Shown: positions 14,947 through 31,236, counted from the first letter of the stretch. The stretch is 37,636 nucleotides of DNA from Rhodospirillales bacterium (GCA_020356105.1 CP070634.1:3408360-3445995), one strand, 5' to 3'. Notes: generated by a model from the sequence alone, not told the origin. Translations and numbers: made by a program.

Positions 14947-15130
14947 CCGATTCTGCCTCCCGAATCATATCGCCGCGGCAATGTGCCCGTATGATTATTG
15001 CTTATCCGCCGAATTATGATACGAATCAAAACAATCCCGTCCAAATTAACCTTCTGTATACCAATCAATGCGACGATTTCGCCTCGGACAATCCAGATTG
15101 CGGTCCGCTCCGACCCGGGGGGCATAAGAG

Positions 15131-15502
15131 ATGGCCAAGACGATCCTAATCGTCGAGGACAACGAGCTGAATATGAAGCTCTTCCGCGATCTGCTGGAAG
15201 CTCAGGGATACGACATACTGGAGACGCGCGACGGAATGCAGGCGCTTGAGCTGGCCCGCGAGGAGCGGCCCGATCTCATCGTCATGGATATTCAATTGCC
15301 GCAGGTTTCGGGGCTCGAAGTCACGAAATGGATCAAGGCGGACGACAATCTGAAACACATCCCGGTGGTCGCGGTTACCGCCTTTGCCATGAAGGGGGAT
15401 GAGGAAAAGATCCGCGAGGGCGGCTGCGAGGCCTATGTCGCCAAGCCGATATCGGTCAAGGATTTCCTTTCCACCATTGAGCGCTTTCTCGGCAACTCCT
15501 GA
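15131..15502 (+). CDS. divK: Single-domain response regulator DivK
   Basis: [54 protein letters not shown]. Confidence 0.92.
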
Positions 15503-15777
15503 GCCAAGCCGGAAACCCGAAAACAGCATCAATCCCGCGATTGCAGCGGCGCCGATGGTTGCCAGTCCGACGACGCTCCAACGGGGATGCGCACTCCCGG
15601 TTCGGCGGCGATGCCTCGAGGCGATGCGACGACCCGCCGACCCTCTCGCCCTGCCCCGGTCGAATGGCCGCGCGAACCTTAAACGAAGCTGAAATCCCGC
15701 GTCAGCGAGTGTTCAGGCAACGCAAGATAATCTCTCGCGACAATCTGGACCGCCCCACTGTTAAGGAGATTTTCGGC

Positions 15778-16167
15778 ATGAAGGAAATCAAGAACGACAG
15801 CCCCGCAGAAACCATGAGTGACGGCGAGATCGAGTCGGTGGACGCCGGCCGCCGCCGAGCGCTGGCCCGGCTCGGCCTGACGGCAGCGATCGCCTATGCG
15901 GCCCCTGCCCTGCTCCCCCTGACGCCGGTCAAGGCCGACAGCGGCTCCGGCGGCGGCGGTGACTCCGACTCGGGCGGTGGCTCAAACAGCGGCAGCAGCG
16001 GCTCCAGCGGTACCGACGCATCCGATGGCACCGATGCGTCCGACGGCACCGATGCATCCGACGGCACCGACCCGTCCGGCCCGTCCGACGGATCGGATGA
16101 CGCCGATGACGGCACCAACCCGACGGAACCCACCGAGGCAACGGAGCCATCCGACGAAGTTGACTAA
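15778..16167 (+). CDS. Putative precursor peptide 1: twin-Arg-like leader with YxxPxL, acidic Ser/Thr repeat core (129 aa)
   Basis: AAGGAG RBS; VDAGRRRALARLGLTAAIAYAAPALLPLTPVKA then a G/S/D/T-rich repetitive tail. Confidence 0.8.
   Translation: MKEIKNDSPAETMSDGEIESVDAGRRRALARLGLTAAIAYAAPALLPLTPVKADSGSGGGGDSDSGGGSNSGSSGSSGTDASDGTDASDGTDASDGTDPSGPSDGSDDADDGTNPTEPTEATEPSDEVD
16009..16080 (+). repeat. 18-bp coding tandem repeat (GTDASD x3, then GTDPSG)
   Basis: ggtaccgacgcatccgat / ggcaccgatgcgtccgac / ggcaccgatgcatccgac / ggcaccgacccgtccggc; differences among the first three copies are all at third codon positions. Confidence 0.9.
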
Positions 16168-16188
16168 AGCAGCTTTTCGCTGGAATCT

Positions 16189-16216
16189 TGGGGACGGCGC
16201 GTCGGTGCCGTCCCCA
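16189..16216 (+). terminator. 12-bp stem-loop after precursor 1 (mRNA stabiliser or leaky terminator)
   Basis: TGGGGACGGCGC-GTCG-GTGCCGTCCCCA with one G-U pair; no long U tract. Confidence 0.7.
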
Positions 16217-16278
16217 TTCCTCATATCTGTCGCAGCTTTCCGGCAAGACCCCGACGCGGGGACATGACGATCTGACGC

Positions 16279-17487
16279 ATGAGACTGCAGTTCGAACAGA
16301 TAAACCAGCAGGTCCAGATCGACGACGATGACGCCCTGTTGTCGCCGTTGCCCAGCGTCTTTCGTTACTGGCCCTACCAAGAGGCAACCGCGTCCACGTC
16401 GGACGAACCGGTCGTCACGGTGCGGCGGGAGGGAACGGGCTATCGCCTGTTCGCGCGCTGGCGCGACAAGCCGCCACGCTATTCGAACCCCGTGAACCTG
16501 GCATGTGGCCTTGCATTGAACCTCAATCGGGCGATGCTGGAACAGGAAAGATCGTACCTTTGCCTGCACGGCGCCGGGCTGCAGATCGGTGGCCGGCTGG
16601 TGGTTCTGCCCAATTACTACCGCGCGGGCAAGAGCGCTCTAACCGTGTGTCTGGCGGCCGGCGGCGCACGGGTCTTCAGTGACGACATCCTGCCCTTGCT
16701 GCCGGACGGTTCGGGCATGGCGCTGGGCGTATCGCCGCGTTTGCGCCTGCCGCTGCCGGCGGGGCTTGGTGAACGGACTTTGCGGTTCATCAAGCGCCGA
16801 CGGGGGGCCGTCAATGCGCAGTATCTCTATGTCCAGCTGGAGCCGCATGAGCAGGCCCGATTCGGTGAGACTTCGGATTTCGGCGGTTTCGTGCTGCTCG
16901 ATCGGCGCGAGTCCGGACCGGCGCGCCTGTCGCCGGCAAGCAGCGGCCAGGTTCTCAAACAGGTCGTTCTGCGCAATTTTGCCCGGCAAGTGCCCGCCGA
17001 AACCGCGCTGGACCGCCTTCATGACCTCGTGGCCAATTCAGCCTGTTATACCTTGACCTATTCGAACGGCGACGAGGCGGCGGACCTGCTGATGCAGCGC
17101 TTCACGACGGGCGGCACGGACGTCGCGAAACCGGCGGATCAAAGAGAGGCGACGGCGCTCAATTCGGCTCCCGCCGCCAAGGTCGTGCCCGCCGGCGAAT
17201 ATCCGCGACGCAGGCCCGGGGTCAGAGAGCGACTGGTCGATGGCGACCTGTTCCTGGTCGATGGCGCCGGCCAGGCCATCTACCACCTGAACCCCGTGGG
17301 CGCCGGGCTGTGGCGGCTCATGGATGGCAGTTGCGGCTCGGACGAGGTGGTTTCGCTGTTGCAGGAGGCGTTCCCGGATGTCGAGCAAGGGGTGATTGCG
17401 CGTGACGTTGCGACCATCACCGCCGACCTGTTGAGTCGCGGGCTGCTGTACAAGGGCACAGACCCTGCGGCAAATTGCGGAAATTGA
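16279..17487 (+). CDS. HprK-related P-loop kinase fused to C-terminal PqqD/RRE domain (copy 1)
   Basis: LCLHGAG, Walker A NYYRAGKS, FSDD, PRLRLP; C-terminal VDGDLFL...AIYHLNPVGAGLWRLMDG...L..AFPD...DV....DL..RGLL. Confidence 0.82.
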   Translation: MRLQFEQINQQVQIDDDDALLSPLPSVFRYWPYQEATASTSDEPVVTVRREGTGYRLFARWRDKPPRYSNPVNLACGLALNLNRAMLEQERSYLCLHGAGLQIGGRLVVLPNYYRAGKSALTVCLAAGGARVFSDDILPLLPDGSGMALGVSPRLRLPLPAGLGERTLRFIKRRRGAVNAQYLYVQLEPHEQARFGETSDFGGFVLLDRRESGPARLSPASSGQVLKQVVLRNFARQVPAETALDRLHDLVANSACYTLTYSNGDEAADLLMQRFTTGGTDVAKPADQREATALNSAPAAKVVPAGEYPRRRPGVRERLVDGDLFLVDGAGQAIYHLNPVGAGLWRLMDGSCGSDEVVSLLQEAFPDVEQGVIARDVATITADLLSRGLLYKGTDPAANCGN

Positions 17488-17785
17488 GACTGATTTTCCT
17501 TCCGCGAGAGAGAATTTCCTATATTTCTCAACAAATTGGAAACGATTGCGCTAAGGTACGCTAGCGCACTCTGCTATCGTATTCATGTAATGGTCCGTTT
17601 TCGGGACTGCCGAAACAGGGGCTCTCAGGGCGGCAGTCGCGAGCGCAAGAACGGACAGGCTGACGCCGTCAAGGCGCGTGTTAGCCGATTTCTGCAAGAC
17701 AGGTGAGGCATCGGAGCCAGGCTCCGTTCAGGCGGCACGTCCCGCACGGGGAATCGTCGATACCCTGTTGTGACGAGAACCGCAA

Positions 17786-18010
17786 ATGTGGAGCCCTGGA
17801 TTGAACTCGAAGCGAAAGCCGCAACCGCGAAACCGTCGATTCAATGCGACCGGTGCGTTCACCGAGATCCACGTCGATCCCCGGCAAAGGCGTGCCCTCG
17901 CCCGACTTGGACTTGCGACAGCCAACACTTACACGGCGCCGACGCTGCTCGCCCTCAGGTCTGCGCAGCGATCCCCGGACGCCCCCGGCCGTGTCGTCGC
18001 CGCGGCCTGA
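17786..18010 (+). CDS. Putative precursor peptide 2, paralog of precursor 1 with short core (possibly decayed)
   Basis: VDPRQRRALARLGLATANTYTAPTLLAL aligns ungapped with the precursor 1 leader; alternative TTG start at 17801 with GGAG upstream. Confidence 0.65.
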   Translation: MWSPGLNSKRKPQPRNRRFNATGAFTEIHVDPRQRRALARLGLATANTYTAPTLLALRSAQRSPDAPGRVVAAA

Positions 18011-18127
18011 CGATCGAATCATGCTCACCTGCAGGGCTGGCGGCTTGGTCCGCCGGGCGGACCGAACCGCGGCGAGAAGGCCAATTCGCCGAATGCATGC
18101 CGGCTGAGTGAGCAAGGGGGGAGGTCA

Positions 18128-19360
18128 ATGTATCTGAAATTCGAGTCCATCCCGCGACCCGTCCTCCTGGCGCAGGGTCTCAAATTGCTCCCGCACCTTG
18201 TCAGATTGTTCGCGAACTGGCGTTTCCGGGAAGTCCCTGCGGGCAGATATGGGGATCCCGAGATCAACATCTTGCAGGACGGCGACGACGGTATCATACA
18301 GGCACCGTGGATCGAGGCAGAGCAGCGGTATCGGAACGCCGCCGATCTCGCCGACGGTCTTTCGAAGCACCTGATACGATGTTGGATCGAGGAGAATGCA
18401 CCAGCGCTTGGAATCGCCGCCGCGGCCGCGCGATTCGGCGACGGTCTCGCGGTCATTATCGGCGGGCCGAAATCCGGCAAGAGCCTGCTGACCGCAAGCT
18501 TGTCGGTGTTGGGGCACACCGTGTTCGCGGACTCGGTTGTACCGATCGCTGTTTCGACGCGAGAATGCATCGGCTTGGGAATGGCACCGCGCTTGAAATT
18601 GCCGCTGCCCGCTTCTTACACTGGGCCGTTGCGCCGCCGCCTCGAGCGCCGGCTCGACAGTTGCGGCCCCCAATCGGCCTATCTGCTGCCCCGTGCCGGC
18701 GATATCGCCGCCTTTGGCGAACGCGCGCCGATCAGCGCCTTCGTTATTCTCGACCGCGCCGACGGCAGCATCACCAGCCTGCGCCCCGGGACCTCGAGTT
18801 CGTTACTCAAACGCCTGCTCCTCGGCAGCTTCGACGCCCTTCCGTCTGCCCGGGCTACGCTGAACCTCTTGCACGATATTGTAACCAATCTGCCCTGTTA
18901 CCGGCTGACCTGGTCGGACCCGTCGGAAGCGGCCCGCACCCTGCGCGCGCGTTTGGCGTTCAAGCGCCCGGTACCGGCCGACGATCGGAGCCGCGAATCC
19001 GCGAGTGATTCTCTTCCCCGGCGCCGCGCCGCCGGTCCGCGCATCCCTGCGGGCCGCCGATATCGATACGCCGACGGGCTCGAGATATGCCGTCTCGACG
19101 GCACCATGTTCATCGCCGATACGAATGGCACGGCCATCTATCACCTCAACAGCTTGGGCGCAGGGCTGTGGGGTCTGCTTGATGGAACGCATGGGCTGGA
19201 GGACGTGATGTCGGTCCTGCAAAACGCGTATCCGACCGTCGATCGAACCGTGATCGAAAACGACGTCACCAGTCTGATCGCCGAGCTCGTTGGGCGCGGC
19301 CTGGTGATCGAACAGCACGCGGGCGATTGCGGGACGGAACGGCCTGAAATCATCCCTTGA
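18128..19360 (+). CDS. HprK-related P-loop kinase-like protein fused to PqqD/RRE domain (copy 2, degenerate motifs)
   Basis: GGAGG RBS; Walker A GGPKSGKS, FADS, GMAPRLKLPLP, AIYHLNSLGAGLWGLLDG; paralog of 16279-17487. Confidence 0.8.
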   Translation: MYLKFESIPRPVLLAQGLKLLPHLVRLFANWRFREVPAGRYGDPEINILQDGDDGIIQAPWIEAEQRYRNAADLADGLSKHLIRCWIEENAPALGIAAAAARFGDGLAVIIGGPKSGKSLLTASLSVLGHTVFADSVVPIAVSTRECIGLGMAPRLKLPLPASYTGPLRRRLERRLDSCGPQSAYLLPRAGDIAAFGERAPISAFVILDRADGSITSLRPGTSSSLLKRLLLGSFDALPSARATLNLLHDIVTNLPCYRLTWSDPSEAARTLRARLAFKRPVPADDRSRESASDSLPRRRAAGPRIPAGRRYRYADGLEICRLDGTMFIADTNGTAIYHLNSLGAGLWGLLDGTHGLEDVMSVLQNAYPTVDRTVIENDVTSLIAELVGRGLVIEQHAGDCGTERPEIIP

Positions 19361-20780
19361 TGCATATTAGCGGCCTGAGCTCGGCGATCTTGCGGGCTAG
19401 GCCGGCCTCGTGTGTCGCTTCGATCACAGCCGTTACGTCCTTGTACGCGGCCGGTGCCTCCTCCGCCACGCCGCGCATCGACGGGCTTCGGATCAAGGTT
19501 CCCCGGTGCGCCAGGTCCCTGACCACATCGTCGCCGCGCCAATTCTTGCGTGCCTGATGCCGGCTCATGCGCCGACCCGCCCCATGACAGGCAGAGCTGA
19601 ACGCACGCCGCTCACTGGTTGCGGTCCCCGCGAGGATCCACGAAGCCGTCCCCATGCTGCCGCCGACGAAGACCGGTTGTCCAATGGGGCGCAACGCCCC
19701 GGGCAGGCTCGCATGTCCGGGGCCGAAAGCGCGCGTCGCGCCCTTGCGATGCACGAACAGCTGGCGCGCTTTGCCGTTGATCGTGTGCTCCTCGACCTTG
19801 CAGGTGTTGTGCGAGACATCGAACAGCAGGGTCGCTTCCGTTCTCGGAAGGACGGCACATAACGCCTGCCGGACCAGATGTCCGATGATCTGACGATTCG
19901 CGAACGCGCAGTTGATGGCCGCGCGCATCGCGCCGAGATAACGCCGCCCGAGATCGCTGTCAATCGGGCTGCAGGCGAGCTCACGATCGGGCAGCTTCAA
20001 TCCGAGACGCGCGTCCTCGATCGCCATATCGCGCAGAAATTCGGTACCGATCTGGTGTCCAAGACCTCGCGAACCACAGTGGATGCCGACCACCAGCTCG
20101 CCGACCGCCAGACCGAATGCCCGCGCCGCATCCCCATCGTGTATGCGCACGATTTCCTGGATTTCGAGGTAATGGTTGCCCGAACCCAGCGTCCCCATCT
20201 CACGTCTTTGCCGCTGACGGGCCCGATCGCTGACGCAGTCTGGCATTGCGCCGGGCATACATCCGGACTCCTCTATCCGGTCGAGATCGGCGGGCGCGCC
20301 GAATCCCCGATCGACGGCCCAACGGGCGCCGCCGGCCAGCATGGCGGTCATCTCCGCATCCGAGAGGCTGATTTCGCCGGTGCTCCCCAGACCGGCCGGT
20401 ATGGCGGCAAACAGGGTATCGGCCAGCTCTTCCTTGACGGGCTCCACATCCTCGCGTTTCAGACCCGTCACCATCGTTCGCACACCGCAAGAAATGTCGA
20501 ACCCGACACCGCCGGCCGAGACGACCCCGCCGGCTTCGGGATCGAACGCAGCAACGCCGCCGATCGGAAACCCGTATCCCCAGTGCGCGTCGGGCATTGC
20601 ATAGGACGCCGTCACGATCCCGGGCAGCGTCGCCACGTTGGTGACCTGCTCGTAAACCTTGTCATCCATGTCGCGGATCAGCTGTTCGTCGCCATACAGA
20701 ACCGCCGGCACGCGCATTTCGCCATGGGGTGCGATCCGCCATTCGAATGGAGAGACTTTCTCGAGACGCGAGAGCTCCAT
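19350..20780 (-). CDS. rtcB: RtcB RNA ligase (archaeal-type, long form)
   Basis: MPDAHWGYGFPIGG, GFDISCG, GSGNHY.E, HCGSRG, DVSHN, VHRKGATR, SMG, HGAGR, EEAP.AYK. Confidence 0.95.
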   Translation of the reverse strand: MELSRLEKVSPFEWRIAPHGEMRVPAVLYGDEQLIRDMDDKVYEQVTNVATLPGIVTASYAMPDAHWGYGFPIGGVAAFDPEAGGVVSAGGVGFDISCGVRTMVTGLKREDVEPVKEELADTLFAAIPAGLGSTGEISLSDAEMTAMLAGGARWAVDRGFGAPADLDRIEESGCMPGAMPDCVSDRARQRQRREMGTLGSGNHYLEIQEIVRIHDGDAARAFGLAVGELVVGIHCGSRGLGHQIGTEFLRDMAIEDARLGLKLPDRELACSPIDSDLGRRYLGAMRAAINCAFANRQIIGHLVRQALCAVLPRTEATLLFDVSHNTCKVEEHTINGKARQLFVHRKGATRAFGPGHASLPGALRPIGQPVFVGGSMGTASWILAGTATSERRAFSSACHGAGRRMSRHQARKNWRGDDVVRDLAHRGTLIRSPSMRGVAEEAPAAYKDVTAVIEATHEAGLARKIAELRPLICIKG

Positions 20781-20792
20781 CGGTGCGCCTCC

Positions 20793-21218
20793 TCAGACAT
20801 CGACAACGCAACGAGCGACCCAGGAACCGCCCCGGCGGTGCACGGAAAGGCCCGTATAGGTGGCGCCCTTCACTTCGACGGCGGGATGATGGCGCTCGCG
20901 CGAGATCTTCTCGCCCCACGCGGTTCCAACCAGTCGGCACCCGTCGATTCTGACCTCGAACCGCCCAAACAGCATGCCACGGGTCGCCATCTCGAAGACC
21001 AGCGCGTTAAGCCATTCGACCAGCAGCAGCTCGATATCCGGCGCCTCGCAGTGCACCGTGACCTTTTCATTGGTGCGCACCAGTTCCGGGTCCGTAATGG
21101 CACCAGTCATTGCCGTCGCAACGCGTTCGAATACATCGCCAAGGCTGGGTCCGGATGCGGCGAGGCCGATGTCCGCCTCGTGAGCGAAATGCGACCAACC
21201 GTTTGCCTGTGCGGACAT
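20793..21218 (-). CDS. Archease
   Basis: F.HEADIG, LLVEWLNAL, GEKI...RH, EVKGATY, C-terminal VVDV; directly upstream of rtcB. Confidence 0.92.
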   Translation of the reverse strand: MSAQANGWSHFAHEADIGLAASGPSLGDVFERVATAMTGAITDPELVRTNEKVTVHCEAPDIELLLVEWLNALVFEMATRGMLFGRFEVRIDGCRLVGTAWGEKISRERHHPAVEVKGATYTGLSVHRRGGSWVARCVVDV

Positions 21219-21311: not shown

Positions 21312-22454
21312 TCAACCGGCGTCTTTGACCACGCTGTCATCTGCGCCGTCCGGGACGTCCGCATCATTTGGGGTTGCCCCGACGGTCGCGCGGATCAGCG
21401 ATTCGTAAATGCCGATTGATGAAGAGAGATTCCAATGGTTTTCGACAAATTCGCGGGCCGTCGGGGCAGGTGAAATCGAAAGTGCCTTCTTAAGGACCTC
21501 CACCAACGCCGGCACAGACTCGTTGGAGAGCAGATGCCCTGATTCGGGACATAACATCTCTGGCTCGATCGGGGATGTTGCCACGACCGGCTTTCCACAG
21601 GCCTGCGCCGCGAGGATCGGTCGCCGGCTGAAGTCGCCGGCGGCCCCCTGATAGAACACATCGATGGCCTGGTGAATCGATTCCGGGAGCGCCCAGCCAC
21701 CCAGAATGTGGACGCGCTCGTCCAGATTCAGTTCGCGAAGCATGCCGCGTGCAAGCGAGCCCGGCGACGCGGCGCCGAACAATGCCACATGGACGTCCGG
21801 TTCCATCGCCGTCAATGCGCTGAACAACATTTCGAGGCTGGACTCCGGTCCAGCGCAACCGATGATCCGCGGCTCCACGGGCAGACCGGTCTTCAGCCTG
21901 GCCTTTGCCGGCGAGTCCGGCCGATAACGATTGCAGTCAATCGCGGAGGGGACCACCGCGATATCGCGGTCAGCGCTCAAGCGGGACGCAATCTCGCGCG
22001 ATGTCGCGACCAGGGTGACGTTGTGCTCCGCCGCCAACTCCAGGATCTGTTTGCGCACCCGTTCATCTGATACGTTTGCGTCATTGCCGACCGTGTGCAC
22101 AAGGTAAGGGATACCGGATTGTCGTGCCGTCGACGCCACGGTCGTCAGGTCATCGAAGCGATGGGTATGGACGATGTCGAGTGTAACCCGCGCAAACAGG
22201 GACGCAAGATCGGCCCTCACGGTATCGCGGTCAACGGAAATCCAGTGGATGTCGTTATGGCCGACGACCGGAGGACAACTGTCGCCCATTCTCGCGAGAT
22301 GCATTTCGAATACGTTGCGAAGGCCGTTGCGAATGTCCGACGCGGCCGTCAAATCCGCGCGTGCATCGAGATCGGATACGACCTCGAGCACCGCCGGCCG
22401 CGCAAGCCGCCGTGCATATGTTTGTTGTAAGCCTTTAGTATGTCTCAAGCTCAT
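21312..22454 (-). CDS. GT4-like glycosyltransferase with degenerate catalytic motifs
   Basis: DIVHTH, VHT, AID..RY.P...KAR...GLP, AQACGKPVVAT; lacks GRL..K and E-x7-E. Confidence 0.7.
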   Translation of the reverse strand: MSLRHTKGLQQTYARRLARPAVLEVVSDLDARADLTAASDIRNGLRNVFEMHLARMGDSCPPVVGHNDIHWISVDRDTVRADLASLFARVTLDIVHTHRFDDLTTVASTARQSGIPYLVHTVGNDANVSDERVRKQILELAAEHNVTLVATSREIASRLSADRDIAVVPSAIDCNRYRPDSPAKARLKTGLPVEPRIIGCAGPESSLEMLFSALTAMEPDVHVALFGAASPGSLARGMLRELNLDERVHILGGWALPESIHQAIDVFYQGAAGDFSRRPILAAQACGKPVVATSPIEPEMLCPESGHLLSNESVPALVEVLKKALSISPAPTAREFVENHWNLSSSIGIYESLIRATVGATPNDADVPDGADDSVVKDAG

Positions 22455-22500
22455 AACCACTGAATCGGCATTGCATCCGCAAGGAATCCATAAACAAACA

Positions 22501-22517
22501 AGCATGATTCGTGCCAA
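22501..22517 (-). promoter_or_regulatory. Putative sigma54 (-24/-12) promoter of the GT4-like gene
   Basis: Minus strand TTGGCACGAATCATGCT versus consensus TGGCACG-N4-TTGCW, correct GG/GC spacing, about 47 bp before ATG 22454. Confidence 0.6.
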
Positions 22518-25260: not shown

Positions 25261-26133
25261 TCAGTCGCTTGCACCGTCGCGGGTCAGGAGCGGACCATAG
25301 AGTTCCGGCCGCCGGTCCCGGAACAGGCCCCATGAAGCCCGCATCGCGCGAACTTCTTCGAGATCGAATGCCGCAGTTACGACCGCCTGTTCCTCGCGTC
25401 CCGCCTCGGCATGGATCTCCCCTTTGGGCCCGGCGATGAAGGACGAGCCGTAGAAGGTCATCGTCGCGGCATCGTTGTCCTCGATGCCGATCCGATTGCT
25501 GGCCGCCACGACCACCATGTTGGCCGCCGCATGACCCTGCATCACGCGCTGCCAGTGGTCGCGACTGTCGAGCTCCGGGTCATGCGGCTCCGAGCCGATC
25601 GCCGTGGGATACAGCAGGATATCCGCACCGCGCAGTGCCATGGAGCGGGCGCATTCGGGGAACCACTGGTCCCAACAGATGCCCACCCCGATCGTCCCGC
25701 AGCGGGTTGGCCAGGCCCGGAATCCGCTGTCACCCTCGCTGAAATAGAATTTCTCCTCGTATCCCGGCCCCTGCGGAATATGGCTCTTTCGGTAACATCC
25801 CAGTACGCTGCCGTCGGCATCGATGATCGCAGTCGAGTTATAGTAGGCGTTGTTGGCGCGCTCGAAGAAGCTGACTGGCAAAACCACCCCCAGTTCGGCC
25901 GCGAGCCCCGCGAAACGCGAGATGACCGGATTGCCCTCGAATGGTCGTGCGAGGGCGAAGTACTCCTGTTTCTGATCCGGACAGAAGTAGGGCGTTTCGA
26001 ACAGCTCTTGCAGCAGCACGATATCAGCGCCCCTGTGCGCCGCCTCGCGAACCAACCGTTCCGCCGTGTCGAGATTGGCCTCGGTATCCCAGCTGCAGGC
26101 CATTTGCGTCACCGCGACGGTGACCGTCGTCAT
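25261..26133 (-). CDS. aguB: N-carbamoylputrescine amidase
   Basis: QELF, YRKSHIP.GPGY.EK.YF, ICWDQWFPE, YPTAIGSEP, FRDRRPELY. Confidence 0.95.
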   Translation of the reverse strand: MTTVTVAVTQMACSWDTEANLDTAERLVREAAHRGADIVLLQELFETPYFCPDQKQEYFALARPFEGNPVISRFAGLAAELGVVLPVSFFERANNAYYNSTAIIDADGSVLGCYRKSHIPQGPGYEEKFYFSEGDSGFRAWPTRCGTIGVGICWDQWFPECARSMALRGADILLYPTAIGSEPHDPELDSRDHWQRVMQGHAAANMVVVAASNRIGIEDNDAATMTFYGSSFIAGPKGEIHAEAGREEQAVVTAAFDLEEVRAMRASWGLFRDRRPELYGPLLTRDGASD

Positions 26134-27155
26134 GGCGCGTGTCCCGCGTCTGGTTGTTGCTGGGTGATGCAGTGAATGCCCCCGCCACCGCGGACGATAT
26201 CGGTCGAGGAAATTTGGATGACCTTGCGGTCGGCAAAAGCCTGCGCGACCGTCTTGAACGCCGCGTTGTCGCGACGGTCTTCGAATCCCGGCATGACAAC
26301 TCCGCCATTGGCGATATAGAGGTTGACATAAGAGCTTGACAGGCGCGTTCCGGCGTCTTCCATGCGCGACGGCTGATCAACCGTAATGACCTCCAGCTTG
26401 CGGCCCTTGGCGTCGGCACTGCCCCGCAGGATTCCGATGTTCTCCCTGCAAATCTCGTAATTCGGATCGCTCTGGTCCGGGCACGACGCGGCCAGCACCA
26501 CGCCGGGACGAACAAAGCAGGCGACATTATCAATATGACCGTCGGTCTCGTCATCGTGACAACCGGCGGGCAGCCATATGATCTTGTCGACTCCGAGCCA
26601 GTCGCGCAGGCTTTGCACGGTTTCCTCGCGGTCCATTCCCGGATTGCGGTTCGGATTGAGTAGCACCGATTCGGTGGTCAGCAATGTCCCCTCTCCATCC
26701 GTATGGACGGCACCACCCTCCATGACGAACGGCGCATCGAACCGTCTTATCCCCTGCTGCGCCAACAGTGCTTCGGCCAGCCGGGCGTCGTTGTTGTAGT
26801 ACTCGTACTTCTGGCCCCAGGCATTGAAATGCCAGTCGCACGCCGCGATTCCGCCCCGCCCGTCGACCACATAGGTCGGCCCCACGTCCCGCATCCAGGA
26901 ATCGTCGATGTCCATCGGAAGGATTTCGACGCCACGGCCGCAGGCCATCGACGCGGCGGCGACATCGGACGGGTTGGCAATCATCGTAATAGGCTCGAAC
27001 TCGGCGATCACACGCGCGACCCCCGCATATGCTTGGCGCGCATCTTCGATTCGGTCGCCCCACAACTCCTCACGGCAGGGCCACGCCATCCAGCACCGCG
27101 CATGCAGTTGCCACTCTGCGGGCATGTAGAAACCTTCGGCGGCGGGCACGGTCAT
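26130..27155 (-). CDS. aguA: Agmatine deiminase
   Basis: MPAEW, WMRD.GP, FNAWG, EGG, NPNRNP, TDGHIDN, SYVN, GGGIHCITQQQP. Confidence 0.95.
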   Translation of the reverse strand: MTVPAAEGFYMPAEWQLHARCWMAWPCREELWGDRIEDARQAYAGVARVIAEFEPITMIANPSDVAAASMACGRGVEILPMDIDDSWMRDVGPTYVVDGRGGIAACDWHFNAWGQKYEYYNNDARLAEALLAQQGIRRFDAPFVMEGGAVHTDGEGTLLTTESVLLNPNRNPGMDREETVQSLRDWLGVDKIIWLPAGCHDDETDGHIDNVACFVRPGVVLAASCPDQSDPNYEICRENIGILRGSADAKGRKLEVITVDQPSRMEDAGTRLSSSYVNLYIANGGVVMPGFEDRRDNAAFKTVAQAFADRKVIQISSTDIVRGGGGIHCITQQQPDAGHAP

Positions 27156-27165
27156 CTCGGCCCCT

Positions 27166-28254
27166 TCATTCGGACAAGACCAACGTGTCTTCCGGTGACC
27201 ACGAGATCCACAGGTCGTCGCCGATCAGGATGCTCGAATCGCTGCGACGGGTCTCATTCTGGATCGTCGTGGTAAACCGCACGCCGGTGTCGGTATCAAG
27301 CAGGATATGGCTCTCGTTGCCATAATACGCGACATCGCTGACCTTGCCCTTGAGGCCGAGCCGGCCCGCGGCGGGTTGTTCTTTCGACAGGCGCGTCTTC
27401 TCGGGCCGTACGGCGATGCCGATCTCGCCCGATGCCGGCCCGTCGTGCGGCACCTCGAAGCGTTCCAACCCCTCGATGTCGATCGCGAGGCGCCCCCCGC
27501 TCAAACCCGCCACCTTTGCCTCGAGCAGGTTCATTTTACCAATGAAATCGGCCACAAACCGGCTGTTTGGATGCTCATAAAGCGTTGCCGGCGCGGCCAC
27601 CTGCCGGACGACACCATGGTCCATCACCGCTGCGCGGTCGGCCATCGACAGCGCCTCGTCCTGATCGTGCGTTACGATGACGAAGGTGATCCCCACCGAA
27701 TGCTGCAAATGGACAAGCTCGAGCCGCATCGCTTCGCGAAGCTTGGCGTCGAGCGCGCTCAGCGGCTCATCGAGCAGTAGCACTTTGGGTTTCTTGACCA
27801 GGGCCCGGGCGAGTGCAACACGTTGCCGCTGCCCGCCGGACAATTGATCCGGCTTGCGTCGCCCGAAATCCTCGAGATGCACCAGGGTCAGCGCTTCCTT
27901 TACCCGCTCAGCGATCTCCGACTTGCCGACTCCCGTCACCTTCAGACCGTAGGCGACATTGTCGAATACCGTCATATGCGGAAACACCGCATAGGATTGA
28001 AACACCATATTGACGGGTCGCCGGTTGGGGGGAACCCCGAGCATCGGCTGCCCGTCGATCTCGATTTCGCCTTCGCTGGTCGTTTCGAATCCGGCAAGCA
28101 TTCGCAGCAACGTCGTCTTGCCGCATCCCGAAGGCCCCAGCAACGCAAAGAATTCGCCCTGCCTGATATCGATCGAGACGTCGTCGACAGCCGTTACGCT
28201 GCCGAACCGCTTGGTCACGTTGCGTACGCGGATGATTGGGGCCTGCTCGGTCAT
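27166..28254 (-). CDS. Polyamine ABC transporter ATP-binding protein (PotA/PotG-like)
   Basis: GPSGCGKT, LSGGQRQR, LLLDEPLSALD, TOBE-like tail; ATGA overlap. Confidence 0.92.
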   Translation of the reverse strand: MTEQAPIIRVRNVTKRFGSVTAVDDVSIDIRQGEFFALLGPSGCGKTTLLRMLAGFETTSEGEIEIDGQPMLGVPPNRRPVNMVFQSYAVFPHMTVFDNVAYGLKVTGVGKSEIAERVKEALTLVHLEDFGRRKPDQLSGGQRQRVALARALVKKPKVLLLDEPLSALDAKLREAMRLELVHLQHSVGITFVIVTHDQDEALSMADRAAVMDHGVVRQVAAPATLYEHPNSRFVADFIGKMNLLEAKVAGLSGGRLAIDIEGLERFEVPHDGPASGEIGIAVRPEKTRLSKEQPAAGRLGLKGKVSDVAYYGNESHILLDTDTGVRFTTTIQNETRRSDSSILIGDDLWISWSPEDTLVLSE

Positions 28255-29099
28255 TCCTGTCGTCCCTTCGCCCAGCGCGATTGCATGATCATGGCGATGA
28301 GAGTCAACGAGAGCGTGATGACGATGAGCACCGTCGAGGCCGCGTTCACCTCCGGGGTCACGCTGAAGCGCAGCATAGAGTAAATCTTGATCGGGAATGT
28401 CGTCGACCCGACACCGGCGGTGAAGAAGGTAATGACGAAATCGTCCAGGGAAAGCACGAAGGCCATCAATGCGCCCGCCACCAGGCCCGGCACCATGTAC
28501 GGGAAGGTTATGTGCCAGAACGTCTGCCACTCGCTGGCCCCGAGGTCGTGGCTGGCCTCCTCCAACGAAACGTCGAATCCCGCCATGCGCGCCCGGATCA
28601 CGACCGCCACGAAGGGAATGGTGAACGCGATGTGGCTGACGGTGATGGTGATCAGGCTCAGATCCATATTGATGGCATTGAAAAAGACCAGCATCGCGAC
28701 GCCCATGCAGATTTCCGGTATGACGATGGGCAGGTGCGCCACGCCTTCATAGGTCCCCTTCCACGGGAAACGATAGCGATAGAGTGCCAGACCCAGCATC
28801 GCGCCGAGCGCCGTCGAGACAAGGGTCGAGGTGCCGGCGACAATCATCGAGTTGACAAAGGCATCGTGCAGCGACGCGTTGTTGAACGCCTTTTCGTAGT
28901 ATTTCCAGGTAAAGCCCCGCCATGTGATGTTCCGTCTGGAGTCGTTGAAACTGAATGCGATCAACGTGACGATCGGGAAATATAGAAAAACGAAGCTGGC
29001 AAGCAGGGTAAGCTGCATCCACGGGCGCTTGAGGTACTCCAACGGATTGGTTCCGCGCACGCGGCGGCGGCGCATCGACCGCGCTGGCAAAGTGCTCAC
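28251..29099 (-). CDS. Polyamine ABC permease (PotC/PotI-like)
   Basis: FLYFPI....FSFN, LEEAS.DLGA, SLDDFVITFF, PEVNA; GTGA overlap. Confidence 0.9.
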   Translation of the reverse strand: MSTLPARSMRRRRVRGTNPLEYLKRPWMQLTLLASFVFLYFPIVTLIAFSFNDSRRNITWRGFTWKYYEKAFNNASLHDAFVNSMIVAGTSTLVSTALGAMLGLALYRYRFPWKGTYEGVAHLPIVIPEICMGVAMLVFFNAINMDLSLITITVSHIAFTIPFVAVVIRARMAGFDVSLEEASHDLGASEWQTFWHITFPYMVPGLVAGALMAFVLSLDDFVITFFTAGVGSTTFPIKIYSMLRFSVTPEVNAASTVLIVITLSLTLIAMIMQSRWAKGRQE

Positions 29100-30132: not shown

Positions 30133-31236
30133 TCAGGAGGCCTGGATCGCCGTCCAGGCCTCGTCATACAGGCGCGTATGCTCGCCGACGCTGAGCAGGG
30201 CCTCGCAGTTCTTCAGCACCTCTTGCGGTGCGAATACCGCCGGATTTTCGGTATATTCCGCCGGCATCCTGTCCTTTGCGTCCTTGTTCGGTGTCGCGAA
30301 GTAGATGGTATTGGCGATCTCCATATGCACATCCACGTCGTGCACGAAGTTGATGAAGTTATGCGCATTCTCGGGGTGAGGCGCACCGGTTGGGATGCAG
30401 AGATTATCGACCCAGACGTTCGAGCCCTCTTGAGGCACGACATAGGTCAGGTCGTCATCCTCTTCCATCACCGCCGCGATGTCGCCGCTCCACTCCATCG
30501 TGATGTCGACTTCGCCAGACAGCAGAAGATCCTGACCATTGTCCTCGGCGAAGGTCTTGATATGCGGCTTGGTGGCGATCAGCAGATCCCGCGCCTTGGC
30601 GATCTCGCTGGCGTTCGTCGTGTTCATGCCGTAGCCGAGATATTTCAGGGCACAGCCAAGGACGGCCCGCATGTCACCAAGATAGGCGATCCGGCCGGAG
30701 TATCTCTTCGCGCGCTCGGGCTCGAAGACGTCGGCCCAGCTGACCAGCGGCCCGTCGACCTTGGATTTCCGGTAGCCCAGCCCGATCGTCCCCCACATGT
30801 AGGGAACGGAGTGCTTCATGCCGGGGTCGTAGGCCGGATTGGTGAAGGCGCCGTCGAGATGCCTGATGTTGGGAATCTTTGAGTGATCGAGCGGCGTCAG
30901 CATATTCAGCGCCAGCATGTCTTCGACCATGTAGTCGCTGGGCACGATCACGTCATAGCCCGGGTTGCCTTCTTTAAGCTTGGCAAACAGTTCCTCGTTA
31001 TCGGCATACAGGTCGTATTGTACCACGATCCCGGTCCGGGCATTGAAGGTCCCCAGCGTCGTCTCGCCGATATAGGTGTCCCAGTTGTAAACGTTCAACC
31101 GCTTCTCCTCGGCGCTCCAACTCCGCCCGGCGGATCCGGCGAAGCTGATTCCGACAGCGGCAGCCGACCCTTGCATGAAGGCGCGGCGCGAGATCCGCGG
31201 AAGAAACCGTCCACGCATCGTTTTCATCTCATTCAT
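30133..31236 (-). CDS. Polyamine ABC substrate-binding protein (PotD/PotF-like) with Tat signal
   Basis: SRRAFM leader, YNWDTYI, GYDVIVPSDY, PYMWGT.G, PQEGS..W.D. Confidence 0.92.
   Translation of the reverse strand: MNEMKTMRGRFLPRISRRAFMQGSAAAVGISFAGSAGRSWSAEEKRLNVYNWDTYIGETTLGTFNARTGIVVQYDLYADNEELFAKLKEGNPGYDVIVPSDYMVEDMLALNMLTPLDHSKIPNIRHLDGAFTNPAYDPGMKHSVPYMWGTIGLGYRKSKVDGPLVSWADVFEPERAKRYSGRIAYLGDMRAVLGCALKYLGYGMNTTNASEIAKARDLLIATKPHIKTFAEDNGQDLLLSGEVDITMEWSGDIAAVMEEDDDLTYVVPQEGSNVWVDNLCIPTGAPHPENAHNFINFVHDVDVHMEIANTIYFATPNKDAKDRMPAEYTENPAVFAPQEVLKNCEALLSVGEHTRLYDEAWTAIQAS

Follow-up and report, generated by a model that had tools for sequence, protein, structure and literature searches.

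A signal-peptide-like leader that may double as an RRE docking site in a kinase-associated family of small proteobacterial proteins

RiPP pathways normally bring their own leader protease and their own exporter. The described system closest to the locus studied here is that of the linear polyphosphorylated peptides (LPP), which occur in Paenibacillus alginolyticus and further Bacillota and are encoded by lppA-K-B-S-D-N, i.e. by genes for a precursor (LppA), an HprK-like kinase (LppK), a discrete RRE protein (LppB), a SipW-type peptidase (LppS), an MsbA-like LppD and an NTP-transferase (LppN) (Popov et al., Nat Commun 2026, PMC13381572). LppK polyphosphorylates Ser3 of the core and LppB presents the leader to LppS; the class is stated to be restricted to Bacillota, with the reservation that the supplementary taxonomy tables might list others (PMC13381572). 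The leader motif YxxPxL, found at positions -17 to -12, is the conserved motif of lasso leaders (PMC10368454), and a motif of this type is known in LPP leaders also (PMC13381572). In the crystal structure of LppB with the leader, the Tyr lies in a hydrophobic pocket and is hydrogen-bonded by D70, the kink at the leader Pro is held by N33, and binding is weakened by the leader substitutions Y-16A and P-13A (PMC13381572). An HprK-like kinase also acts on a linear precursor in the BsfA/BsfK/BsfB1 system of Bradymonas sediminis, where the reaction is accelerated by a YxxPxL-binding RRE and where mutagenesis showed that the H, GKS and DD residues of BsfK matter (PMC10368454). Bufferins, oxazolins and other MNIO-modified RiPPs carry Sec signal peptides; in the bufferin work it is speculated that the signal peptide is kept masked by a partner protein as long as modification lasts, and the signal peptide of BufA1 is dispensable for modification on overexpression (PMC11626156, PMC12452194).

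The locus lies in a window of 37,636 nucleotides from a Rhodospirillales bacterium, by which we mean the whole stretch of DNA that was analysed. It contains two small genes, A1 and A2, each of which sits 5' of a gene encoding a fusion of an HPr-kinase-like domain and a PqqD/RRE domain (K1 and K2; Table 1), K1 being located downstream of A1 after a gap of 111 bases. Residues 25-54 of A1 read RRRALARLGLTAAIAYAAPALLPLTPVKAD, where R25 begins at 15850 and D54 follows directly on V51-K52-A53; residues 25-53 thus hold RRR, an uncharged stretch of 17 residues with YAAPAL inside it, and V-K-A. An earlier note on this DNA had read the segment as a dual-purpose leader, namely as a twin-arginine-like signal with an embedded docking motif for the RRE. 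The strings and positions it gave for YAAPAL, for YTAPTL of the paralog, for the Arg run and for V-K-A followed by D are right, and the start that it assigned to the leader, 15838, corresponds to V21, four codons 5' of the first Arg, which is harmless. Searches of A1 and A2 against Pfam and NCBIfam gave no meaningful match.

Table 1. Coordinates of the features of the A1/K1 and A2/K2 pairs, counted from the first nucleotide of the window
Feature	Position	Strand	Remarks
Precursor gene A1 (129 aa)	15778..16167	+	leader residues 1-53, core residues 54-129; 11 close homologs, library-wide leader family
R25-R26-R27 of A1	15850..15858	+	family-wide RR corresponds to R25-R26 in the leader alignment
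Uncharged hydrophobic stretch L32-L48 of A1, 17 residues	15871..15921	+	h-region-like, holds the docking motif
YAAPAL (Y40-L45) of A1	15895..15912	+	YxxPx(L/V/I) motif; residue positions checked
V51-K52-A53 of A1	15928..15936	+	fits the (-3,-1) rule of signal peptidase I
A1 core, 76 aa	15937..16164	+	acidic, Ser/Gly/Asp/Thr-rich low-complexity tail
18-bp tandem repeat, 3.6 copies	16008..16071	+	within the A1 core
K1 (402 aa)	16279..17487	+	HPr-kinase-like domain ~1-278, disordered linker 279-305, PqqD/RRE ~306-395
RRE domain of K1	17194..17463	+	N338 at 17290-17292, D376 at 17404-17406
Paralogous precursor A2 (74 aa)	17786..18010	+	YTAPTL at 17930-17947
K2 (410 aa), paralogous kinase-RRE fusion	18128..19360	+	36% identity to K1

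The reading that we favour, and to which we would give somewhat better than an even chance, is that A1 may be the precursor of an LPP-related linear peptide that is modified by a kinase, and that its leader would dock onto the RRE and double as an export signal. In the cytoplasm, the K1 RRE would take up the YxxPx(L/V/I) motif of the A1 leader as a beta-strand in its groove, and K1 would phosphorylate Ser/Thr of the Ser-rich core on the model of LppK and BsfK; after modification, A1 would be exported by a general pathway (Tat or Sec) and housekeeping signal peptidase I would cut off the leader. The data themselves establish the layout of leader and locus, the conservation, the kinship of the RRE, the complete catalytic set of K1, the lack of dedicated partner genes and the joint presence of leader and kinase/RRE in genomes; from these we infer the binding, phosphorylation, export and cleavage of A1, as well as the order of these steps. 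Export by a general pathway followed by signal peptidase I would explain why the locus contains no dedicated protease or pump.

The leader of A1 belongs to a conserved family. A word-indexed search with residues 1-56 of A1 returned 40 candidates, from which 11 unnamed metagenomic homologs were obtained with near-identical leaders and different tails. K1 homologs at E<=1e-10 occur in 27 of 401 sampled genomes of the host's class, and 20 of these kinase loci, taken with up to ~8.6 kb per side, were combined with the window to give 21 loci for a search with a leader profile. The search recovered 17 small ORFs in 13 of the 21 loci. In 12 of these 13 the leader ORF directly adjoins the kinase gene (in 11 it lies upstream in the same orientation, in one it is divergent), and in the 13th (L050) it lies between two kinase-like ORFs. 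The leaders of 16 ORFs from 12 genomes, 14 of them directly adjoining a kinase gene, were aligned and numbered by the first row; the ORF of locus L047 was kept out because it is without the RR region (a probable frameshift or odd start). Invariant in all 16 are R16 (the second Arg of the pair), L19, L22, G23, Y30 and P33, while the first Arg is present in 15 of 16 and the sixth position of the motif is L in 13, V in two and I in one. The earlier note had made its docking claim dependent on the conservation of Y, P and L among homologs, and with Y and P in 16/16 and a sixth residue that is L, V or I, it is not refuted on this count.

A search with the leader profile against 1.84 billion representatives extended the family to 763 proteins at E<=0.001 (81 at E<=1e-10), these 763 being representatives of a clustering at 50% identity. 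Nearly all of the 150 matches listed are 58-230 aa long with the leader match at the N-terminus, and ten family members that were looked up are named only 'hypothetical protein'. RR, Y and P were each found in 147 of the best 148 of the 763, with L, I, V or M at the sixth position in 145, counts that are partly circular since the search profile selects these same columns. At the level of sequence, the leader is conserved beyond chance and defines a large, unnamed family.

The partner encoded next to A1 combines two recognizable halves. The N-terminal part of K1 matches TIGR04352 (HprK-related kinase A) with 54.2 bits and that of K2 with 25.6 bits, in both cases only partially; the curated cut-off of this HPr-rel-A system model (200 bits) is missed by both, and the scores of eight relatives range from 22 to 48 bits. 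With a profile of the entire K1-type family, HPr kinases are matched weakly (2.9e-04 to 1.3e-03). The catalytic residues are intact in K1 (H97, G117-K118-S119 and D135-D136), i.e. K1 shares the catalytic H, GKS and DD with BsfK of the phosphorylated lasso systems. The C-terminal part is a PqqD domain (PF05402; 4.4e-12 in K1, 3.8e-11 in K2). A profile of the RRE part has TbiB1 as its best match (5.1e-12), followed by LppB (9x8z_B; 4.7e-10), TfuB1 (4.6e-06) and PqqD itself (0.0079). The AF2 model of K1 consists of two domains and a disordered linker (pLDDT 87.1, pTM 0.84), and a Foldseek search with this model returned the TbiB1-leader complexes first, on the RRE part (TM on target 0.85-0.87), and after TbiB1 the PEP carboxykinases (PEPCK) and HprK/P. 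Judged by these matches, the RRE of K1 is closest to the lasso-B1/LppB type.

The residues that hold the motif in LppB are retained as well. In the HMMER alignment of the RRE profile to 9x8z_B, N33 and D70 of LppB (numbered with the tag counted off, an inferred offset) fall on N338 and D376 of K1 and on N341 and D379 of K2; over 14 RREs of the family, the first of these positions is N in nine and D in five, and the second D in 13 and Q in one. The PqqD domains that the earlier note had pointed to are thus RREs of the lasso-B1/LppB type with Asn/Asp available for the Pro and Tyr of the leader. That note had also called for a structural model of the leader with the PqqD domains. For the RRE of K1 the complex prediction scored 0.44, the best of three controls scoring 0.00, which passes a mark reached by 58 of 80 solved complexes and by two of 110 mismatched pairs; among the passes, scores of 0.60 or less were seen for only seven of the 80 solved complexes and for both passing mismatches. 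The prediction amounts to weak support. The runs agree on at least 91% of the contacts and the partner has a pLDDT of at least 63, but no interface was reported, and since solved B1-leader complexes exist, the pass may reflect memory or likeness. One result counts against docking: the BsfA variant with Ala for Y, P and L is still phosphorylated (PMC10368454), so kinase action does not invariably depend on the motif. Taken together, the docking half of the dual-leader reading is well supported by comparative evidence.

In the case of export, the evidence comes from the architecture of the leader, for which statistics were collected over 145 of the matches listed; three others (P0018, P0051 and P0137) had no fit to the anchoring pattern and were excluded. 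Among these 145, A-x-A is present in 136, its last Ala being Y+13 (83 cases) or Y+14 (53 cases), whereas 500 shuffles gave 15.0 +/- 3.5 and never more than 26. The residue at -2 of A-x-A varies, K, R, N, H and Q being frequent there, and Pro occurs at +1 in only 1/145. The 17 residues that follow R/K-L-G are without charge in 117/145 of the matches listed, with a mean Kyte-Doolittle value of 1.58. The leader has in common with Tat signals that its h-region is of moderate hydrophobicity, that a basic residue lies in the c-region and that it ends in A-x-A. The genome encodes a single Peptidase_S26 (signal peptidase I), at C1:2536292-2536897, i.e. 0.89 Mb from the window. We describe the leader as resembling a signal peptide that carries a twin arginine and whose route may be Tat or Sec; the export half of the reading is in our view supported as a general signal peptide cut by signal peptidase I, not as a Tat signal.

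The strict version of the earlier note's reading, with a genuine Tat signal as leader and TatABC-dependent export, is the likeliest of the alternatives, and we still consider it rather unlikely. It gains from the near-universal RR noted above, with S/T before it in 85 of the best 148 of the 763, and from K/R between the hydrophobic stretch and the cleavage site in 102/145 of the matches listed. It also gains from a modest hydrophobicity like that of the genome's own Tat signals, the best 12-residue window of A1 reaching 1.70 against 1.74 +/- 0.37 in the 19 Tat signals of this genome. Strongly basic cores and early basic residues disfavour Sec, and the Tat pathway suits cargo that is modified before export; among the matches listed, 73/145 cores have a net charge of at least +3 and 31/145 have K/R at core positions +1 to +3. 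Furthermore, where family members match NCBIfam weakly, it is most often with Tat-signal models (TIGR02811 in 55/146 and TIGR01409 in 33/146 of the matches listed at E<=10, with best E-values of 8.4e-04 and 0.002), and TatC is encoded in the genome, a presence that says nothing on use. Against it stands, in the first place, the consensus itself: the Phe of S/T-R-R-x-F-L-K is replaced by Ala in 121 of the best 148 of the 763, so that the imperfection (RRAL) conceded in the earlier note is real and family-wide. TIGR01409 and PF10518 miss the leaders of both A1 and A2 at E<=10 while hitting 33 and 20 other sites in the genome, respectively, and a direct scan of A1 matched no Tat model. A profile built from the 19 above-cut-off Tat signals of the genome gives A1 -2.7 bits, A2 -1.3 bits and the family a median of 3.4 bits; among 9920 background ORFs, A1 is equalled or surpassed by 6558 and the family median by 295. 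As this profile is small (19 sequences) and Phe-weighted, the low score of A1 speaks against a canonical signal and not against use of Tat. The claim of a Tat signal proper is thus not supported in the form given in the earlier note, whereas the dual-purpose segment as such is supported, both for docking and for a signal-peptide architecture with a fixed A-x-A. The kinase half of the neighbouring enzymes and the published LPP system did not figure in that note.

A second alternative takes the leader as a docking leader only, i.e. the Ala-rich hydrophobicity and A-x-A would be recognition features, and the product would stay in the cytoplasm or leave it by an unlinked route. That the Tat profiles miss A1 and A2 fits this explanation, as does the fact that LPP and lasso leaders, which are not signal peptides, carry the same motif with a similar distance between it and the cleavage site (Y-16 and Y-17). 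RND/MFP pump genes occur at 3-4 kb from the module at four related loci, which also counts in its favour. The combination of RR, 17 uncharged residues, fixed A-x-A, variable -2 and rare +1 Pro, however, is the classical grammar of signal peptidase I. The cores point in the same direction. They are hypervariable across the family, being acidic, Arg-rich, Pro-rich or equipped with paired Cys, and over the 145 matches listed the number of core Cys is zero in 89, one in two, two in 50, three in two and four in two; such pairing (50 cores with two Cys vs two with one) is as expected for disulfides, which would place these cores outside the cytoplasm. Ser or Thr occurs at core positions +1 to +5 in 124/144 of the matches listed, and no position holds an invariant Ser/Thr in these 144 cores.

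The gene content of the locus bears on this alternative too, as a docking-only leader would have to be removed by something. Among the genes flanking the module in the window there is no dedicated leader protease or exporter; in particular, the flanks hold no SipW-type peptidase like LppS and no MsbA-like pump like LppD. The genome lacks PF13471, the lasso B2 cysteine protease, and at 92% completeness it also lacks PF14907, the LppN-type NTP transferase. Given all this, we regard the docking-only explanation as improbable. The earlier proposal that general export replaces a dedicated protease and transporter is supported as far as nothing dedicated is present at the locus and one signal peptidase I is encoded elsewhere, and it falls short in naming Tat. 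The flanks are otherwise unrelated to the module: a GT1 gene (21315-22517) is followed by metabolic and polyamine-transport genes, and an ABC ATPase at 27169-28530, which has a TOBE domain, is accompanied by genes for a permease and a binding protein, the arrangement of an importer. The exopolysaccharide surroundings of LPP were considered and are absent from this locus. Across the window and four loci of the fused type, no neighbour is shared beyond the precursor and the kinase-RRE gene.

The leader could also be an uncleaved signal-anchor, in which an N-in/C-out helix would hold the low-complexity tail on the outer side of the inner membrane. The positive charge ahead of the hydrophobic stretch is compatible with this and A2 is without A-x-A, but 17 residues of moderate hydrophobicity with an internal Pro would make a short and weak anchor and the conserved A-x-A argues for cleavage, so we consider a signal-anchor very improbable. 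The second pair deviates in other respects as well. A2 retains RR, Y, P and L and has a short tail; besides the absence of A-x-A from its leader, its best 12-residue hydrophobic window reaches only 0.69 vs a family minimum of 1.03. K2 likewise keeps the RRE residues but has Ala in place of the His and Ser in place of the second Asp of the HprK-like catalytic set. By all these features, the A2/K2 pair looks degenerate or re-purposed.

Leader and kinase also co-occur at the level of whole genomes. In the 401 genomes, leaders were found in 32 and kinases in 27, with both in 25, the kinase only in two and the leader only in seven; related genomes are not independent in these counts. Five of the leader-only genomes were retested by profile (two were left out, G111 for its weak leader match and G250 for being 75% complete), which revealed an adjacent kinase and RRE in three, a kinase only in G286 and nothing beyond a weak P-loop match in G142; in G142 and G286, which are complete and leader-bearing, the profile search gave no RRE match. 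At 16 of 29 leader loci there is no kinase or RRE within 1.5 kb, and in nine genomes with both, leader and kinase are 25-120 kb apart or on separate contigs. That A1 is an ordinary secreted low-complexity protein and the kinase-RRE gene an unrelated neighbour, for which one could cite that about half of the relatives' leader genes are not adjacent to a kinase or RRE, is scarcely credible in the face of leaders in 25 of 27 kinase genomes vs kinases in two of 369 leader-less ones, of an invariant Y, P, L and G that would be unusual for signal peptides over such divergence, and of an RRE that retains the residues holding YxxP.

Returning to the favoured reading of an LPP-related, kinase-modified peptide, the comparison with LPP shows many common traits. 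The A1 family has, like LPP, a conserved N-terminal leader with [Y/W]xxPx[L/V/I/F/A] and a variable C-terminus, a lasso-B1-type RRE with Asn/Asp for Pro and Tyr (N338 and D376 in K1) and an HprK-like kinase with His, GKS and Asp-Asp, present in K1 and not in K2. In LPP, as in the A1 family, the motif lies 14-16 residues ahead of the cleavage site, and the LPP class is without a cyclase. A PF14907 NTP-transferase gene adjoins the module in 9/20 related loci, all of which have separate kinase and RRE genes, though not in this genome. LPP employs a homolog of signal peptidase I and the leader of the A1 family ends in a signal-peptidase-I motif, a striking parallel. In contrast to LPP, where LppB is discrete, the RRE is fused to the kinase here, the locus has no SipW-type peptidase, MsbA-like pump or PF14907, and the host is an alphaproteobacterium instead of a member of the Bacillota. 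The signal-peptide architecture (RR, uncharged stretch and A-x-A) is a further difference, as it is not described for LppA. Lasso systems differ in having a B2 protease (PF13471), which is absent from this genome, and cores of 15-25 residues, whereas the tails are long and of low complexity here. With bufferins the locus would share a precursor that is exported and cleaved by general machinery, with no dedicated protease or pump; bufferin enzymes, however, are an MNIO and a DUF2063 protein, without a PqqD-type RRE or kinase, and here the docking motif lies inside the hydrophobic stretch itself. A literature search on kinase/RRE RiPPs with twin-arginine or signal-peptide leaders found no paper on this combination.

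The favoured reading requires a single segment to adopt two different conformations, at one time a hydrophobic beta-strand buried in the RRE and at another a membrane-targeting helix; this counts against it, although such a change would be plausible. It also raises a problem of timing, in that modification must precede export. Tat proofreading chaperones such as TorD, DmsD and NapD each recognize the Tat signal peptide of the redox enzyme that they serve. In a similar fashion, the RRE might act as a proofreading chaperone that masks the signal peptide, i.e. that buries YxxPxL until the kinase is done, release then giving access to Tat/Sec and signal peptidase I. The analogy is one of logic only (a cytoplasmic protein on the signal peptide of one substrate, ordering recognition and export): the proteins do not share a fold, and what is exported is a cofactor-containing enzyme in the one case and a peptide in the other. 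We offer masking as a tentative extension, about which we have more doubt than confidence. If it is true, the 763 representatives obtained by clustering at 50% identity would represent a large family of secretion-coupled phosphopeptides in Proteobacteria and would illustrate how a RiPP pathway may come to do without a protease and pump of its own.

Should the favoured reading itself hold, an RRE docking strand and a general signal peptide joined in one leader would be a compact alternative to the usual equipment of RiPP pathways, made up of just two genes. The LPP class, described as confined to Bacillota, would then reach into Proteobacteria, and there would be a function for hundreds of small ORFs that lack a name and whose low-complexity tails are hypervariable. 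The comparative data suggest a widespread, undescribed proteobacterial version of this recently discovered class of phosphorylated peptides.

Some minor observations concern expression and variation of the locus. A scan of 15000-19600 for promoters and terminators gave two promoter-like and one terminator-like hits, none above shuffle expectation and none usefully placed. No metatranscriptome contig from two runs covers the K1 gene, which is uninformative as to K1. A1 is covered by one contig in each of the two runs (15822-16019 and 15760-16018), a weak hint at transcription, given that level and strand are not readable from contigs and that such libraries can contain DNA; the common end of both contigs, inside the tandem repeat, is probably an assembly break. 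In one DNA run, the core of A1 carries a 3-base deletion at 15976.

Recognisable core types occur among the leader-family proteins (small ORFs with an Arg pair, a YxxPx(L/V/I) docking motif and an A-x-A signal-peptidase-like site) P0016-P0163, namely acidic Ser/Gly/Asp cores, Arg-rich cores with SFS ends, cores made of PS(K/R)P or KPT repeats, cores of GRG repeats, and two-Cys cores that follow a Pro-x-Pro-Cys start. P0018 (1356 aa) is probably an Ala-rich repeat protein and not a member of the family: positions 25-43 of the leader profile match it 17 times over, each time in a different stretch. In some genomes the leader-family genes are found in tandem sets of two or three (see table).

Features in the window and in related genomes
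Feature	Position	Remark
18-bp tandem repeat	16008-16071	3.6 copies, inside the core of precursor gene A1
Tandem leader-family genes	L072 (G309:C15:808405-809237)	kinase/RRE genes 37-120 kb off (range for G309 and G264)
Tandem leader-family genes	G264:C1:2421725-2422218	kinase/RRE genes 37-120 kb off (range for G309 and G264)
Tandem leader-family genes	G100:C39:260001-260403	kinase/RRE genes on different contig
RND pump and membrane-fusion protein genes	L036 1107-5592
RND pump and membrane-fusion protein genes	L037 12454-16847
RND pump and membrane-fusion protein genes	L046 12021-16388
RND pump and membrane-fusion protein genes	L047 11022-15446

The core of A1 contains a tandem repeat, and a 3-base deletion at 15976 in one environmental DNA run implies that close strains differ in the length of this core. 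Within 15600-17600, metatranscriptome contigs lie solely on the precursor gene, over its 5' portion (15760-16019); they stem from two runs in two studies, both end in the tandem repeat, and they provide a weak hint at best.

The second precursor/enzyme pair (A2/K2, 17786-19360) looks degenerate: in A2 the A-x-A site is missing, the hydrophobic stretch is weak and the tail short, and in K2 the kinase His is replaced by Ala and the second Asp by Ser, with the RRE Asn and Asp retained. Immediately downstream of K2, and convergent with it, lies a gene pair for the RNA ligase RtcB and archease (19353-21218, minus strand).

In four related loci an AcrB-type RND pump and a membrane-fusion protein are encoded 3-4 kb from the kinase/RRE/NTP-transferase module, and these could offer an outer-membrane route. 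Elsewhere in the window, a solute-binding protein (30136-31236, minus strand), probably part of a polyamine ABC importer, has a Tat signal of canonical form, which TIGR01409 matches with 19.4 bits at genome positions 3439491-3439553. Beside its gene stand two others (25264-27155), one of the PAD_porph family (agmatine-deiminase type) and one for a CN hydrolase.
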